A DNA stretch of 64,000 bases from Escherichia coli O127:H6 str. E2348/69 (GCF_000026545.1 NC_011601.1), one strand, 5' to 3'. Positions 44,801 through 50,800 are shown, counted from the stretch's first letter. Program-made: the numbers.

Positions 44801-47800
44801 GCTTCCTTTCGCATCGAGAAACGAGATTAACGCCTCGCCGGTCCCCAGTTCCTGGATTGCCTTTTCGGTATCAAACGCCGGATTGGCCCGCATGGTTTGC
44901 GCCGCAGCTTTTACTGCTTTCTGATCTTTGGGCGTAAAAGCCCGCAAAGCGTGTTGAACGCGATTACCGAGCTGGCCGAGCACATTATCCGGAATATCAG
45001 ACGGGTTTTGCGAAACGAACCAGACGCCCACGCCTTTTGAGCGAATAAGCCTTATCACCTGCTCAATCTTATCCAGCAGTACCTGCGGTGCGTCATTAAA
45101 CAGCAGATGCGCCTCGTCGAAGAAAAACACAAGTTTTGGTTTCTCCAGATCGCCCGCTTCTGGCAATTGTTCATACAACTCTGAAAGCATCCACAGCAGG
45201 CTGGCGGCGTACAGTTTAGGCATCTGATAAAGCTTTTCGGCGCTGAGGATATTGATAACGCCTTTACCGTTAGCATCGTTGCGCATCCAGTCTTTGATAT
45301 CCAGCATCGGCTCGCCAAAGAAATGCGCCGCACCTTGTTGCTCCAGCGACAGTAATCCGCGCTGGATGGCACCAACCGATGCGCTACTGATATTTCCGTA
45401 CTGATTCTGGAAGGATTTGGCGTTATCGCCGATGTACTGGGTAATCGCCCGCAGATCTTTAAAGTCGAGCAGTAACAGCCCCTGATCGTCAGCAATACGG
45501 AAGATGATATCCAGCACGCCAGATTGCACATCGTTGAGATTCAGCAGTCGCGCCAGCAACAGCGGGCCCAGATCCGAAACCGTCGCCCGCACCGGATGGC
45601 CTTTCTCGCCAAAGATATCCCACACCACCACCGGATTGGCATGCGGTTGCCAGTCGTTGACGCCGATATTTTTCAGTCTTGCGAGCAGTTTTTCCGACGC
45701 CTTTCCTGACTGCGCGATGCCGGTCAGATCGCCTTTCACATCGGCCATAAACACCGGAACACCGATTTCCGACAATGACTCTGCCAGTTTTTGCAGCGTG
45801 ACAGTTTTACCCGTCCCCGTTGCGCCAGTAATCAGCCCGTGACGGTTAGCCATTCCCGGCAGTAAAAACAGTTCTGTGTCCGGCGTGCGGGCAATTAACA
45901 GGGGTTCGCTCATGAGATTTCCTCCAGTTTCCTGCCTGGAGTATAGGCAACGGCTGCGCACTCTTCACCGCTAAATTCAGCAGATTGCGAGATGCCTTCC
46001 AAAGAGATTTAAGTGCCGGGCGACAGGCACCCGGCAAAGGGATCAGAAATCGGCTTTCAGAACCACGCGATAACGCGCCTTACCGTCGCGCACATGCTGG
46101 ATGGCGTCGTTAATTTTCGACATCGGGAACAGTTCGGTAGTCGGCGCAACCTTGCTGCGGGCGGCAAAGCGCATCAGCTTACGCAACTCATAAGGTGTAC
46201 CGGTAGCAGAGCCAGAGACACTGCGATCGCCCGCAATCAGCGTAAAGGCCGGAACCGGCAACGGCGTGAGAACCGCACCGACGGTGTGGAAATTACCGCC
46301 ATACGTCAGCGCCTCAAAATAAGGCTGCCAGTCGAGGCTGACGTTGACGGTGTTGATAATGAGATCAAACTGCCCCGCCAGTGCTTTCAGTGCCTGTGGA
46401 TCGCGGCTATTCACCACTTTATCGGCACCCATCACCAGCACTTCCTGCTCTTTCGCCGGATTAGAACTAAAGGCTGTCACCTCGCATCCCATTGCGTGCA
46501 GAAGTTTTATAGCTATATGCCCCAGCCCGCCAATACCAATTACCCCAACGCGGCTGGTGGCAGTGATATGGTGCATCAACAGCGGTTTAAAGACCGTGAT
46601 ACCGCCGCACAACAGCGGTCCGGCAGATTCAATGTCGATATTTTCTGGCAGTGGAATCACCCATTGCCAGTCCGCACGCAACTTCTCGGCAAAGCCACCG
46701 CGATTCATAATCGTCGGCACCGCACCTTGCTCGCAGTTGATCTGATTACCGCTAATACAGGCATCGCAATGCCCGCAGCTGCGTGCCGTCCAGCCAATCC
46801 CGACACGCTGACCGACCTGCAAACCTTTATCCTGCGCGGCACTCCCGAGCGCCACTACGCGACCAATCACCTCATGCCCGGCAACCAGTGGATATTGTGA
46901 AAATCCCCATTCGTTATCGATCATTGACAGATCGGAATGACAGATCCCGCAGTAATCCACCTGCACTTCAACATCTTGTGGCTTCAGTTCACCGGGATCG
47001 TACTCATAAACTTCCAGTTCGCCGCCCGCTTCTTTTGCGGCATAGCTTTTTATCATCGACATTTTTTGGTCCTTCTCTGGTGTGGTCTGGGAAGTGTAGA
47101 GCATGGCAGGGCGGGGTGCCTGGAGTGTGACAAAGGTTACACATCGCGGTATGCAATGCTGAAAATTTCAGCACTTAGCGAGGTGCGAGCAAGCTGGCGC
47201 TTGCATGGTGGCGTGCGACAGGTATAATCCACAACGTTTTCCGCATACCTCTTCAGTGCCGAAGTGGCGAAATCGGTAGACGCAGTTGATTCAAAATCAA
47301 CCGTAGAAATACGTGCCGGTTCGAGTCCGGCCTTCGGCACCAAGTCACTAAATTTCTTACAATACAATAAGTTAGGAAATAAAATCTATCTCTTTTGCCT
47401 GTAAGAAATGCTCTGTTATGTCCCTTGAAAAAGCCGCTGTGGTTGATAGTGGTAATTGGGATGTTAACTCATAGCGGCGTGTAGTTCCAAGCGTCAAACA
47501 CGTACTGACTCAACTTGAAAGCTATGACGTAGCCACCGTCTCTAAACAATCCCAAAAACTTTTAGTGAAGCGCATTTTAGCCCGATGCCCCCGTTCTGTC
47601 GCCGTCGCGAGACGCCGCAGGGGATAAACAGGTTTATGGTGGTCACGGTACTTGCAGACCATATGCAAGCTCTGCCAGCGGTTCGGCCTCGCTCCCCTTG
47701 GGTACATGGTCATCCTGATAAGCCTCACTAACTGACATAACTGTGATGTAGTCGCCAGAGGCTCCGCTTGTTGTCTTACCACCAACGGGGCTTATGACTT

Positions 47801-50800
47801 TTATTGTGTCAGTAAACGGCATATTATCAGTGATAGTTCAAACAGTTAGTAGGTAGAAAATGAAGACCAAAAGAAAGAGCTTTGATCAATTCTTATGGCA
47901 TGATATTGATTTTGAAGATGATGCTGCAAAACAGGAAGAATACCTTGAATCTGCATTGCCACTTATTGGCCAGATTGTTATGTATTTCAATGCGCTAGAG
48001 AAAGAATTAGATAAAGTCATTTATGAAGGATTCAGCGATCGGTCAGATCAGTTAGGAATAATAATTGTGCATAACATGAATTATGCAGCAAAAGTCGAGT
48101 TATTTAGACGTCACTCCGAATTATTCCATTTGGGTGTTGGGCAGCATGTTGATATGTTTGAAGGTCTTATAAAGGATCTCAAGGAATGTGGACGGTTACG
48201 AAACATTACTGTACATGCTGACTGGGATAGCACTGATGTCGAAGGATATACATATTTAGGCATCAAAATAACTAACAATGGAATATCTCAGGAATATATC
48301 CAGTTTGACCTGGGGTCGTTGGAAAGTATCCTTCAATTGATTTTCAGTACGAGATATAAGTTGAGTGATTATTCAGACTTAAGGGGAGATATACTGGCTT
48401 CACATTAGTGCCATTTTTTTACTAAATAGCTAACAAATACTATCGGTAAAAGACAACATCGCAATGGTAAAGCTGCCGTGAAGAAGACATTGATTGATTG
48501 GATCATAGAGACTGATAACTGGACAGGAATCGCAGCGTGGGCGGGTTTCGGTTTGTCAGTATTTCAGTTAGTAAAATCAAGAACATCGCTAAGACTTTAC
48601 CTCGGGTGTGATCAGCACGAGGACAGAATATACGTTTCGAACATAAGCGCACATGATGTAACGTTGAGTGTAGCCGGTGTCGTAACAGCCAGTGGACGCC
48701 TTAGAATGCTTTCCGACGAGTATTCGGATGAGAACATGATCACACCGATGTTACCAAGAAGGTTGAAAGCACGAGACGAAATGGTCTTGAACGTGCCCTT
48801 CATAAATAAGGCTCATCACAACAAAGTGCATCATCGTGGCGGGGTGTATATCAAAACATCTGACGGCAAGATGTTCAGTGATGTTTGTTGGATTAGACGC
48901 CAATGGTGGTGGTTACTGTCTGTAATACTGCGAGACACAAAGCGATAGGACAAGCGAGTCGCAGCTCATATGAGTGCCAACTGACATACGGCTCAGTTGG
49001 AATACTAGGATCGCGACTACGTGTTGTCTGCGAAAAACTGGGACTCAATAGATGGGTGTAGATTTAATTGATACGATCCTGTACGCGAATATTTCTCAGC
49101 ATAAATATCATCCCAGCGTCGGATTATGGTATTCAGAATGTGTGTGATGGTCTCTATCTTTATTCAGACCTTTTCTTCTTATCTTCCCATTCTTTTAAAG
49201 TGCTCTGATATCTTTCTTCATTTATTCTTTTTTCCTCGGTTCTGTCGCTTGAGTTGTAATTATCTGTTTTAATTTTCTTGGCTCCTTGGGATATCGGCCT
49301 CCAGTCCTCTCTAATTTTTTTCACTTGCTCGGCTATTTGTGTCATTGGACTCCTTGCTCCTAAATAGCTAACCCCCTCGAAAGAAGCCATATCATAAGAA
49401 TATTCATTGAGTTCTCTTTCTGTAGATCCGGGCTGTTTTGACCAACTGACACTAATAGAATAAATTTGATCCTTAATTTGCTCATACTTGCAGAGATTGC
49501 TGTTGAGAGAGTGTCCGTTTTTTAATACGCTGACCTTGCTAAATGGTACGCCTCTATTTTTTCTATGTTCTGCATTAACGAGAGGGGGATCAAATTCGAC
49601 CGCTATATCATAGGCTGGTGCATTTCCAGTATTAGCGATATTAATGTCAAAATAAAAAGCAGCCCAAGAGTTTGGTTCAAGAGTCACAACAACATGTGGT
49701 TGAACTGATGCGTCAACCATCCTTTTCGTTTCGTTTGCTAATAGCCTTGTTACTCTCCACAAGAAAAACGTAGCAACTGCTGTTAGCAGTGCTGCAAAAG
49801 CAGAGATCATTGTGCTTATAGTATCTATATGCTGTGTGATGAATTCGATCATTCTTCTCCCTCGAAATATAGTGCTTATTGTTATCAAAGGTAAGATAGC
49901 TCCCGGCTTGAAAAATTGCACGCTTATGGTTGCCCCTCCCTCGACGGTTAAGGCTTCAACTTCCCCCGTGCGCCTCTCCCAGCCGAAGGCTGGGCGGGCT
50001 GTATATCGATTTGCCTTCCTCTGTGGCGTTTATGACCCTGTTTCGCGTTCTTACCGTGAGGCTGTGGGTTAGGGTTACTCTTCTCTTTAAACGCTAAATC
50101 ACTCCTGAATCTCCACTGTTAAAGCACTTTGCGTTGATGCTTGGCGCTTCTCTTGGCTGTCGTTATTGTTTTGGCTTTGGTGTCATCAATCGTTCGATTC
50201 TTGCTACCTGTCTGAGTGATTACTATCTGGTATCATCAATTTAGGGTTTGACTAAATGCCACCACCAATGCAATGATGCTACCGTTTTGTGATACCAGAC
50301 GGGTGAGGTGAACCATGAGGACTTTTATCTACTGCCGCGTTTCAACACGCGAGCAGGATACGCAGAATCAGGTGCTGGCTATTGAGCGTGCCGGGTATAA
50401 GGTGCCGGAGAGCAGGGTAATCAGCGAGGACATTTCCGGCAGCGTTCAGGCTATGCAGCGCCCTAAGTTCCGGGCGATGGTTGAGCACAAGCTGGAAGCG
50501 GGAGATCAGCTTGTCGTGCTGAAACTGGACAGGCTGGGGCGTGACAACATCGATGTGCAGCAGACCATCGACATGCTGTTAGAACGCGGCGTGAAGGTGG
50601 TGTCTCTTGACCTGCCAGCGCGTGATCTGACTTCATCTGAGGGCAAGCTAATCCGCCAGATGTTTGGAGCCTTTGCTGAGTTCGAGCGAAACCGTATCCG
50701 TGAGAGGACGCTGGACGGGCTGGAGAAGGCGAAAGCCAATGGCGTTAAGCTGGGACGCAAGGAAGCCACCGACACCACTCAAAAGGTGCAGGAGCTGCGG

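Follow-up and report, generated by a model that had tools for sequence, protein, structure and literature searches.

GOLLD (RF01998) and ROOL (RF03087) are large, multi-helix, pseudoknotted non-coding RNAs (ncRNAs) found in phage-related DNA, often near islands of transfer RNA (tRNA) genes; one GOLLD immediately follows a tRNA-Met gene, and the function of both RNAs is unexplained. In addition, 3'ETS-leuZ, from the glyW-cysT-leuZ transcript, is reportedly a small RNA (sRNA) sponge which derives from a tRNA trailer and is released by tRNA processing. Phage satellites also encode abundant ncRNA, for example the inter-inverted-repeat transcript of PLE (PMC7567579). Here we analyse the DNA directly downstream of the leuX tRNA gene in a window of 64,000 nucleotides from Escherichia coli O127:H6 str. 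E2348/69 (GCF_000026545.1, NC_011601.1), with all positions counted from the first letter of the window. Comparative sequence analysis leads us to propose, with a probability of roughly 55%, that positions 47343-47806 are the tRNA-side terminus of a 15-kb integrated element and carry the gene for a structured ncRNA of ~370 nt, read in the direction of leuX.

After leuX, no annotated or plausible gene begins before 47860, and a first-pass annotation had taken 47343-47859 as one GC-rich non-coding stretch, which might be a remnant of an earlier integrated element or an integration-associated regulatory region. The natural boundary is instead 47806/47807, where the homology to ~620 other genomes ends. 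Specifically, the 464 bp of 47343-47806 are found with 95-97% identity in 620 of the 5,426 complete E. coli genomes, always directly after leuX, with no annotated feature and with different genes after them; when diverged copies are included, 864 E. coli genomes (~16% of the complete ones) match. Sensitive blastn searches detected the 3' part (47625-47807) at 72-78% identity in ~240 more E. coli genomes and in 66 enterobacterial plasmids. Copies in Kosakonia, Trabulsiella, Enterobacter and Kluyvera are 95-98% identical, which far exceeds what core-genome divergence between these genera, on our own estimate, would lead one to expect, and therefore the segment moves horizontally. At least 13 genera have diverged copies 170-320 nt downstream of a tRNA-Leu, -Gly, -Ala or -Thr gene, and such copies are present on plasmids as well. 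Pattern scans of one-genome-per-species and metagenome collections retrieved more than 100 distinct variants, whose hosts include Pantoea, Erwinia, Tatumella, Serratia, Cedecea, Klebsiella, Citrobacter, Kluyvera and Enterobacter. A covariance model built from the homologues (R1) matches 47544-47810 with 231 bits (E 8e-66), and those pattern matches from unrelated phyla which did not align with the family obtained no score with the later covariance model. Weak second matches to the model were recorded 1-2 kb from the main copy at two loci (L123:2070-2276, minus strand, and L032:6206-6463, plus strand; 40 and 25 bits, respectively), the one in L032 directly after a tRNA-Ala gene. They suggest a tandem accretion of elements and the existence of members more divergent than the pattern scans could retrieve.

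The base composition along the stretch is far from uniform. The GC content of 47343-47859 as a whole is 0.455, against a window mean of 0.511 and a value of 0.538 in the flanking chromosome; it amounts to 0.29 in the AT-rich first 90 nt (47343-47432), 0.445 in 47433-47569, 0.549 in 47570-47806 and 0.34 in the last 53 nt (47807-47859), while the cargo at 47860-49921 has 0.40. The description of the stretch as GC-rich compared to the cargo thus applies to its 3' half, 47570-47806, and not to the rest. The absence of a convincing open reading frame (ORF) right after leuX was confirmed: the stretch contains only ORFs of 87 aa (47522-47785, minus strand, TTG start), 59 aa (minus strand) and 48 aa (plus strand), for none of which a Pfam match was obtained. 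From one homologue to the next, the longest frame without a stop differs in strand and register, and in one of them it reaches 39 aa at most; the indels are of 1-2 nt, not multiples of three, and fall in the loops of the fold described below. In the same way, conserved positions follow helices rather than codons. With no conserved frame and no Pfam match, a protein-coding gene was rejected, and the search for intact-gene homology or a coding signal, named earlier as what would refute a non-coding stretch, came out negative both in Pfam and in the reading frames. It is true that ORFs exist, and that short 'hypothetical proteins' annotated by PGAP overlap the 3' end of some diverged copies. A small protein, encoded by the 87-aa or the 59-aa minus-strand ORF, is nonetheless effectively refuted, given that the best frame switches strand between homologues, that Pfam gives no match and that conservation tracks the helices; a decaying remnant of an older element is just as hard to reconcile with 464 bp that are 95-98% identical across genera, and we give these two explanations next to no weight. 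Rather than a remnant, we see here one end, intact and highly conserved, of the element that is integrated now, which spans 47343-62403 and is bounded by a 30-nt leuX repeat: the attachment (att) core attL corresponds to the last 30 nt of leuX (47313-47342), and is repeated exactly at the far end (Table 1).

What the first-pass annotation had missed is that the greater part of the stretch varies in the manner of a large structured RNA, with compensatory changes and a pseudoknot. At least 11 helices, including an H-type pseudoknot, can be traced over the whole RNA, 91-100% paired and with compensatory changes. For the universal 3' domain, an alignment of 59 sequences has 91% of its cells paired, compared to 27-45% when the partners are slid by 1-3 columns, and contains 11 pairs changed on both sides, against 6.3 +/- 1.3 in shuffled alignments (0/500). 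Realignment of 69 distinct sequences with the covariance model raised these values to 95.3% paired cells, against 28-44% when shifted, and 13 compensatory pairs, against 6.0. The variation within single helices is in line with these figures. Helix P3 occurs as four haplotypes (CUUGCA/UGCAAG, CCUACA/UGUAGG, CCUGCA/UGCAGG and CCGG/CCGG), and P6 as GGCC/GGUC, AGCC/GGUU or GCUC/GAGC, the last of which represents a triple compensatory change. P5 is a stem of 2-3 bp that in many homologues is capped by a GNRA loop (GCAA, GAAA or GUAA); P2, where present, is always a hairpin of 18-45 nt made from unrelated sequences, and is missing from one clade; P9 is conserved and 96% paired. Five G-U pairs are invariant. 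The sequence UGGUGGU (47637-47643) has two equally supported partners, namely 47674-47680 and ACCACCA (47778-47784). A further helix, P7 (47734-47736 with 47751-47753), was only 32% paired and was dropped. Some resemblances noticed by eye were also set aside, with nothing found in ARAGORN or Rfam: a T-arm-like P4 (5 bp and a 7-nt UUCRGCC loop), an acceptor-like 7-bp helix ending in ACCACCA, a T-box-like GGUGGU and a hammerhead-like CUGAUGA.

Similar indications were obtained for the 5' domain. The long hairpin S1 is formed from differing sequences (GCCGCUG../..AGCGGC, GCCACAG../..CUGUGGC and GCCGUCA../..UGACGGC), with a folding z-score of -4.8 for the copy in the window and a mean of -1.9 over 24 variants. 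It is followed by the H-type pseudoknot, whose stem S2 is 99% paired, with compensatory changes in three of its four pairs (CG/GC; CG/GC/AU/UA; UA/GC/AU/GU), while stem S3 is 100% paired and occurs as UCAA/UUGA, UCGA/UCGA, UCAC/GUGA and UCUU/AAGA. Together the two pseudoknot stems contribute five compensatory pairs, with up to four pair types at one position. The small hairpin S4 is 74% paired, on an alignment which is out of register for the tRNA-Gly type. In a locus of the glyU type (L007:4723-4790), two small hairpins, UCUCC..GGAGA and GAAGAC..GUCUUC, stand directly after the tRNA, with no U-tract; they may be processing signals or att-arm sites.

The pairing is strand-asymmetric. On the plus strand 95.3% of the 3' domain cells are paired, compared to 82.7% on the minus strand, with 356 G-U cells against 32 A-C cells; because pairing falls in this way on the opposite strand, the functional strand is that of the tRNA. 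We conclude that the plus strand very probably acts as a structured single-stranded nucleic acid, and probably as an RNA. Compensatory changes, by themselves, select for pairing in any single strand, and the plus strand could also function as single-stranded DNA, that is, as a primosome-assembly or single-strand initiation site, as an oriT-like or packaging signal, or as an integron attC-like recombination substrate acting with the neighbouring small recombinase. Such a role would suit the presence of the 3' domain on 66 plasmids, 35 of which are predicted to be conjugative and 17 mobilizable; the proximity of a small recombinase, which is found within 1-3 kb in 55 of 123 loci (a serine recombinase homologue downstream of the RNA in 34, a tyrosine recombinase instead in 21); and the exchange of cargo at fixed boundaries, both of which share a short TTATGG motif. 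We nevertheless regard a single-stranded DNA as unlikely. The H-type pseudoknot, the GNRA-capped mini-hairpins and the five invariant G-U pairs are seen more typically in RNA; iterons and repeated sites are lacking, as are inverted repeats in a consistent position on either side of the cargo or the recombinase; the plasmid copies are found in blocks flanked by insertion sequences (IS) and not in transfer regions, and the capsid gene of the element points to packaging of double-stranded DNA. An invertible or cassette segment, or res-like sites of the serine recombinase, were also considered and rejected, as no consistent inverted or direct repeats were found.

Table 1. Coordinates of the leuX locus, of the helices of the proposed RNA and of the surrounding element, in positions of the window.
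Feature	Position	Strand	Remarks
leuX, tRNA-Leu(CAA)	47258-47342	+	ARAGORN; Rfam tRNA match, 59 bits
AT-rich linker	47343-47432	+	GC 0.29; poorly alignable between tRNA types
S1, long hairpin of ~16 bp	47433-47478	+	opens the 5' domain
H-type pseudoknot	47478-47518	+	S2 47478-47481/47499-47502; S3 47494-47497/47515-47518
S4, small hairpin GACG..CGUC	47526-47540	+	variants GAUG/CAUC, GCC/GGC
Universal 3' domain, ~240 nt	47570-47806	+	covariance model; also in plasmid copies
P0	47572-47576 / 47584-47588	+	
P2, hypervariable hairpin	47588-47623	+	
P1 (CAGG/CCUG)	47629-47632 / 47714-47717	+	closes the multi-helix junction
P3	47651-47656 / 47664-47669	+	
P6	47685-47688 / 47708-47711	+	
P5, mini-hairpin	47694-47702	+	
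P8	47754-47762	+	
P9, 3' hairpin	47763-47770 / 47783-47789	+	U-rich tail next
Variable cargo hotspot	47807-49901	.	ORFs of 182, 156 and 253 aa (the 253-aa ORF on the minus strand)
Conserved right hotspot boundary, CCCGGCTTGAAAAATTGCACGCTTATGGTTGCCCCTCCCTC	49902-49945	+	before the gene of the serine recombinase
Small serine recombinase, 189 aa	50315-50884	+	Pfam Resolvase, E 8e-37; recurrent neighbour of the RNA
Tyrosine integrase, 403 aa	61028-62239	-	Pfam and PHROG integrase matches; beside the distal repeat, at the other end from the RNA
attR, exact 30-nt copy of the leuX 3' end	62374-62403	+	distal limit of the element
Displaced native leuX trailer and terminator (inferred)	62404-62445	+	..GGGCGGCTTTTTTT; ..AGTCGCTCAAGGGCGGCTTTTTTTGTG; read from the sequence, directly after attR

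The association with tRNA genes was assessed at the 109 loci with enough upstream sequence. At 64 of them, the 3' end of a tRNA gene in the same orientation precedes the conserved ATCCTGATAAG motif by 310-460 nt, with tRNA-Gly-CCC (34) and tRNA-Leu-CAA (27) followed by Ala-GGC (2) and Thr-CGT (1). A further 21 loci retain a tRNA 3' remnant, which indicates tandem elements, and the remaining ones are mostly plasmid copies or chance pattern matches. At three loci (L060, L140 and L154), a minus-strand integrase gene lies ~1.7 kb upstream of the RNA, just before the att remnant; the resulting order of integrase, att site and RNA is the one expected in the excised circle, and this arrangement shows that elements stack in tandem at one tRNA. 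The idea of a guide or bridge RNA choosing the tRNA target was abandoned, as a class B 3' domain with P2 is found behind both leuX (L027, L038) and glyU (L019, L007).

As to location, the earlier proposal of an integration-associated region is upheld, since the segment always abuts the tRNA-side att site. This position, which holds for every integrated copy, would also be that of a plain attP arm, in which double-stranded binding sites for integrase, IHF and excisionase are conserved by way of related integrases. Consistently with such an arm, the integrase is the neighbour on the other side of the att site, both in tandem arrays and in the inferred circle, and the AT-rich first 90 nt hold a perfect 10-bp inverted repeat, ATTTCTTACA (47352-47361) and TGTAAGAAAT (47400-47409). 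Extended to the whole segment, however, an attP arm is very unlikely: binding of proteins to double-stranded DNA gives no reason for compensatory changes, for a pseudoknot or for strand-asymmetric G-U pairs, no direct repeats are common to the two arms (47300-47620 versus 62180-62460), and the conserved block extends 460 bp from the core, with its distal 240 nt present on plasmids that have no att site. The attP-arm explanation probably holds for 47343-47432 only, and this linker is possibly an attP arm or an RNase E processing region.

Returning to the proposed ncRNA, we searched for the signals that could govern its transcription. In both the leuX and the glyU type, simple consensus scans of the interval from the tRNA to the RNA detected no sigma-70-like promoter and no terminator. 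An own sigma-70 promoter was rejected: the weak matches just after the tRNA are not conserved, and none is found upstream of the plasmid copies. A phage-type RNA polymerase promoter fared no better, as the CTCAACTTGAAAG sequence in the linker, which by eye resembled a T7-class core, has no match in the related phage Lidtsur, where no repeated promoter motif was found either. At the other end of the element, a hairpin and a T-run directly after attR appear to be the original leuX terminator. Because the native terminator has been moved 15 kb away, and no promoter or terminator intervenes, the RNA is probably made as the leuX 3' trailer; co-transcription with the tRNA, taken as a claim in itself, stands at about even chances.

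Starting from this arrangement, we infer the following scheme for transcription, processing, insulation and a role in trans. Insertion of the element would part leuX from its own terminator, and read-through from the leuX promoter would yield the RNA as a 3' trailer of the tRNA, from which normal tRNA 3' processing would free it. The transcript would stop at the RNA's own 3' hairpin, and the RNA would in this way serve the tRNA gene as a substitute 3' end and keep transcription from the tRNA promoter out of the cargo genes, although such a terminator or insulator role is doubtful. The integrated element would thereby gain a constitutively expressed, stable RNA, which may have a function in trans.

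Downstream of the RNA, homology between loci stops at 47791-47807, at the RNA 3' end, and resumes at 49902. Between the same boundaries, the cargo of 21 loci ranges from 172 bp (near-empty) to 2,307 bp. For the cargo ORFs of strain E2348/69, no match was obtained in Pfam or PADLOC. The first of them (47860-48408, 182 aa) has the sequence RNITVH, an Rx4H motif of the kind typical for HEPN RNases. Similar R-x4-H motifs are present in the first cargo ORFs of loci L025 and L036, which are likewise unmatched in Pfam and PADLOC. Of 91 distinct cases, 58 have a first downstream ORF in the direction of the RNA, and in the other 33 it faces the RNA.

This architecture bears on a further possibility, in which the segment would be a cis-acting leader (a riboswitch, an antiterminator or a processive-antitermination RNA) gating transcription from the tRNA promoter into the cargo. 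A leader would be expected directly upstream of the cargo, as here, and would account for the terminal hairpin with its U-rich tail, for the aptamer-like combination of highly conserved junction nucleotides with variable stems, for the alternative pairing partners of UGGUGRU and for the co-oriented ORFs. The 33 cases in which the first ORF points towards the RNA argue against it, as do the lack of relatedness of the cargo between loci and the retention of the RNA at near-empty sites. In addition, some variants have a strong terminator right after the RNA, and the alternative helices overlap the 3' hairpin by 2 nt only, so that no obvious switch emerges. Taken together, these points make a cis-acting leader quite unlikely.

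Several observations weigh against a trailer-derived structured ncRNA, and have to be set beside those reported above. The co-orientation with tRNA genes counts as one observation and not as 64, because the geometry of att site and integrase fixes the orientation. The tRNA promoter could not be the sole source of transcription, because plasmid copies have neither a tRNA nor a promoter-like site upstream. As far as the 3' end is concerned, P9 is followed by CUUAUGAC or CUUUAUGG, a poor U-tract which fails the 5-of-8 T rule of the terminator scan, even if some variants show a clear terminator hairpin immediately after the RNA. With respect to the fold, several helices have competing partners, notably UGGUGRU with either YCAGCG or AYCACCA, and the fold is not fully settled; much of the covariation is partitioned among few clades; and comparable statistics would be expected from a single-stranded DNA structure of that strand in which G-T pairs are tolerated. 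Finally, the single-sequence folding energy is no better than that of shuffled sequences (z +0.72 on the plus and -0.18 on the minus strand), and thermodynamic stability was consequently discarded as a line of evidence, its z-scores being non-significant on both strands.

The plasmid copies keep the 3' domain only, without a tRNA. In two of them, L005:4940-6808 (pA18-1) and L157:8801-10608 (a Morganella plasmid), it belongs to IS-flanked blocks, and the order in the plasmid blocks is RNA, 244-aa HNH endonuclease, serine recombinase (minus strand) and ParA/ParG. The RNA, the cargo and the small recombinase may form a unit of their own. A GC-richer conserved region (49902-50314) precedes the serine recombinase gene of strain E2348/69; a hairpin at ~49978-49994 reads CCCAGCC-GAAG-GCUGGG here and CCUCGCC-GAAG-GCGAGG in locus L026, which is a compensatory difference, and this region may be a second structured element or a terminator.

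The integrated element itself looks like a phage satellite of T7-like phages. Its major head protein gene (57350-58345; phrog_267, E 3e-64) encodes a product 56% identical to the capsids of Bonnellvirus, a phiKMV-like genus of Autographiviridae, and no terminase, portal or tail genes were recognised among the element ORFs scanned. Other genes specify a RecQ/DpdF-like helicase, an HNH protein, an endonuclease VII and AbiTii, in addition to many small genes. In six loci, a homologue of the integrase lies 9-13 kb beyond the RNA and is encoded on the minus strand, and metagenomic contigs contain related elements of 10-15 kb whose far end carries a homologous minus-strand integrase. Sensitive blastn with the 517 bp of the terminal stretch gave no phage-genome similarity, and the stretch was therefore rejected as a nucleotide-level copy of a helper cos/pac site. 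Beyond 62445, a second island with type I restriction-modification and McrBC genes continues past the end of the window.

To place the RNA among described families, the region 47100-48000 was scanned with Rfam 15 (cmscan), which at E <= 10 returned the tRNA only; six loci with diverse homologues likewise gave the tRNA only at E <= 1. The families covered include GOLLD, ROOL, HEARO, STAXI, int-alpA, C4/CI, T-box, hammerhead and tRNA-like RNAs. Searches of the published literature for sequence strings, leuX and glyU hotspots, tRNA-trailer sRNAs and satellite ncRNAs found no account of the element. Apparently, the segment is a conserved structured RNA element, so far undescribed, at the tRNA-side end of a satellite-like family. 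More tentatively, we would see in it an undescribed class of large structured RNA of Enterobacterales, carried by satellites of T7-like (Bonnellvirus-type) phages, which on integration captures the promoter of the host tRNA and has a function in trans, comparable to that of GOLLD and ROOL, in maintaining the satellite or exploiting its helper.

Large structured RNAs are seldom newly discovered, and no bacterium has been searched as thoroughly as E. coli. If true, an RNA which is present in ~16% of its complete genomes, is left unannotated by PGAP and stands outside Rfam would genuinely enlarge the catalogue. The link of GOLLD and ROOL with tRNAs is unexplained, and an E. coli analogue on a defined 15-kb element would open the question to genetics. 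Moreover, the RNA 3' end is the left edge of a 0.2-2.3 kb cargo hotspot, and thus a landmark for the mining of accessory, possibly defence, genes; the possibility is also raised that integrative elements exploit the promoter of their target tRNA gene.

When the RNA is compared with known systems, int-alpA, STAXI, HEARO/omega RNA and the DUF3800 motifs offer a parallel, being structured RNAs or DNAs beside integrases and nucleases, as here; none of them matched in the cmscan search. The present RNA has no IscB, TnpB or reverse transcriptase partner, and the HNH endonuclease beside the plasmid copies is not a constant neighbour. The P4 CI RNA and the PLE transcript are internal to their elements and carry antisense matches to mRNA leaders of those elements, whereas the present RNA is terminal and far more structured; no comparable antisense match was seen here, though none was sought, and the C4/CI family of Rfam does not match it. 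With 3'ETS-leuZ it would share its biogenesis as a tRNA trailer, in that it lies downstream of a tRNA, co-oriented and with no intervening terminator or promoter; 3'ETS-leuZ, by contrast, is short, chromosomal and acts by simple base pairing, while the present RNA is ~370 nt long, elaborately folded and borne by a mobile element.

The closest comparison is with GOLLD and ROOL. Neither model matches the present RNA, even at E <= 10; the latter is shorter (~370 nt, against ~580 to more than 800 nt) and belongs to integrative elements of Enterobacterales, while GOLLD and ROOL belong to Lactobacillales, rumen or marine phages. RNAs of the GOLLD/ROOL type are, moreover, abundant transcripts that self-assemble into homo-oligomeric cages. 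The likeness is one of kind and context only: like GOLLD and ROOL, the present RNA combines many helices and a pseudoknot supported by covariation, joins a universal 3' domain to a variable 5' domain, and follows a tRNA in phage-related DNA, here a phage-satellite-like element.

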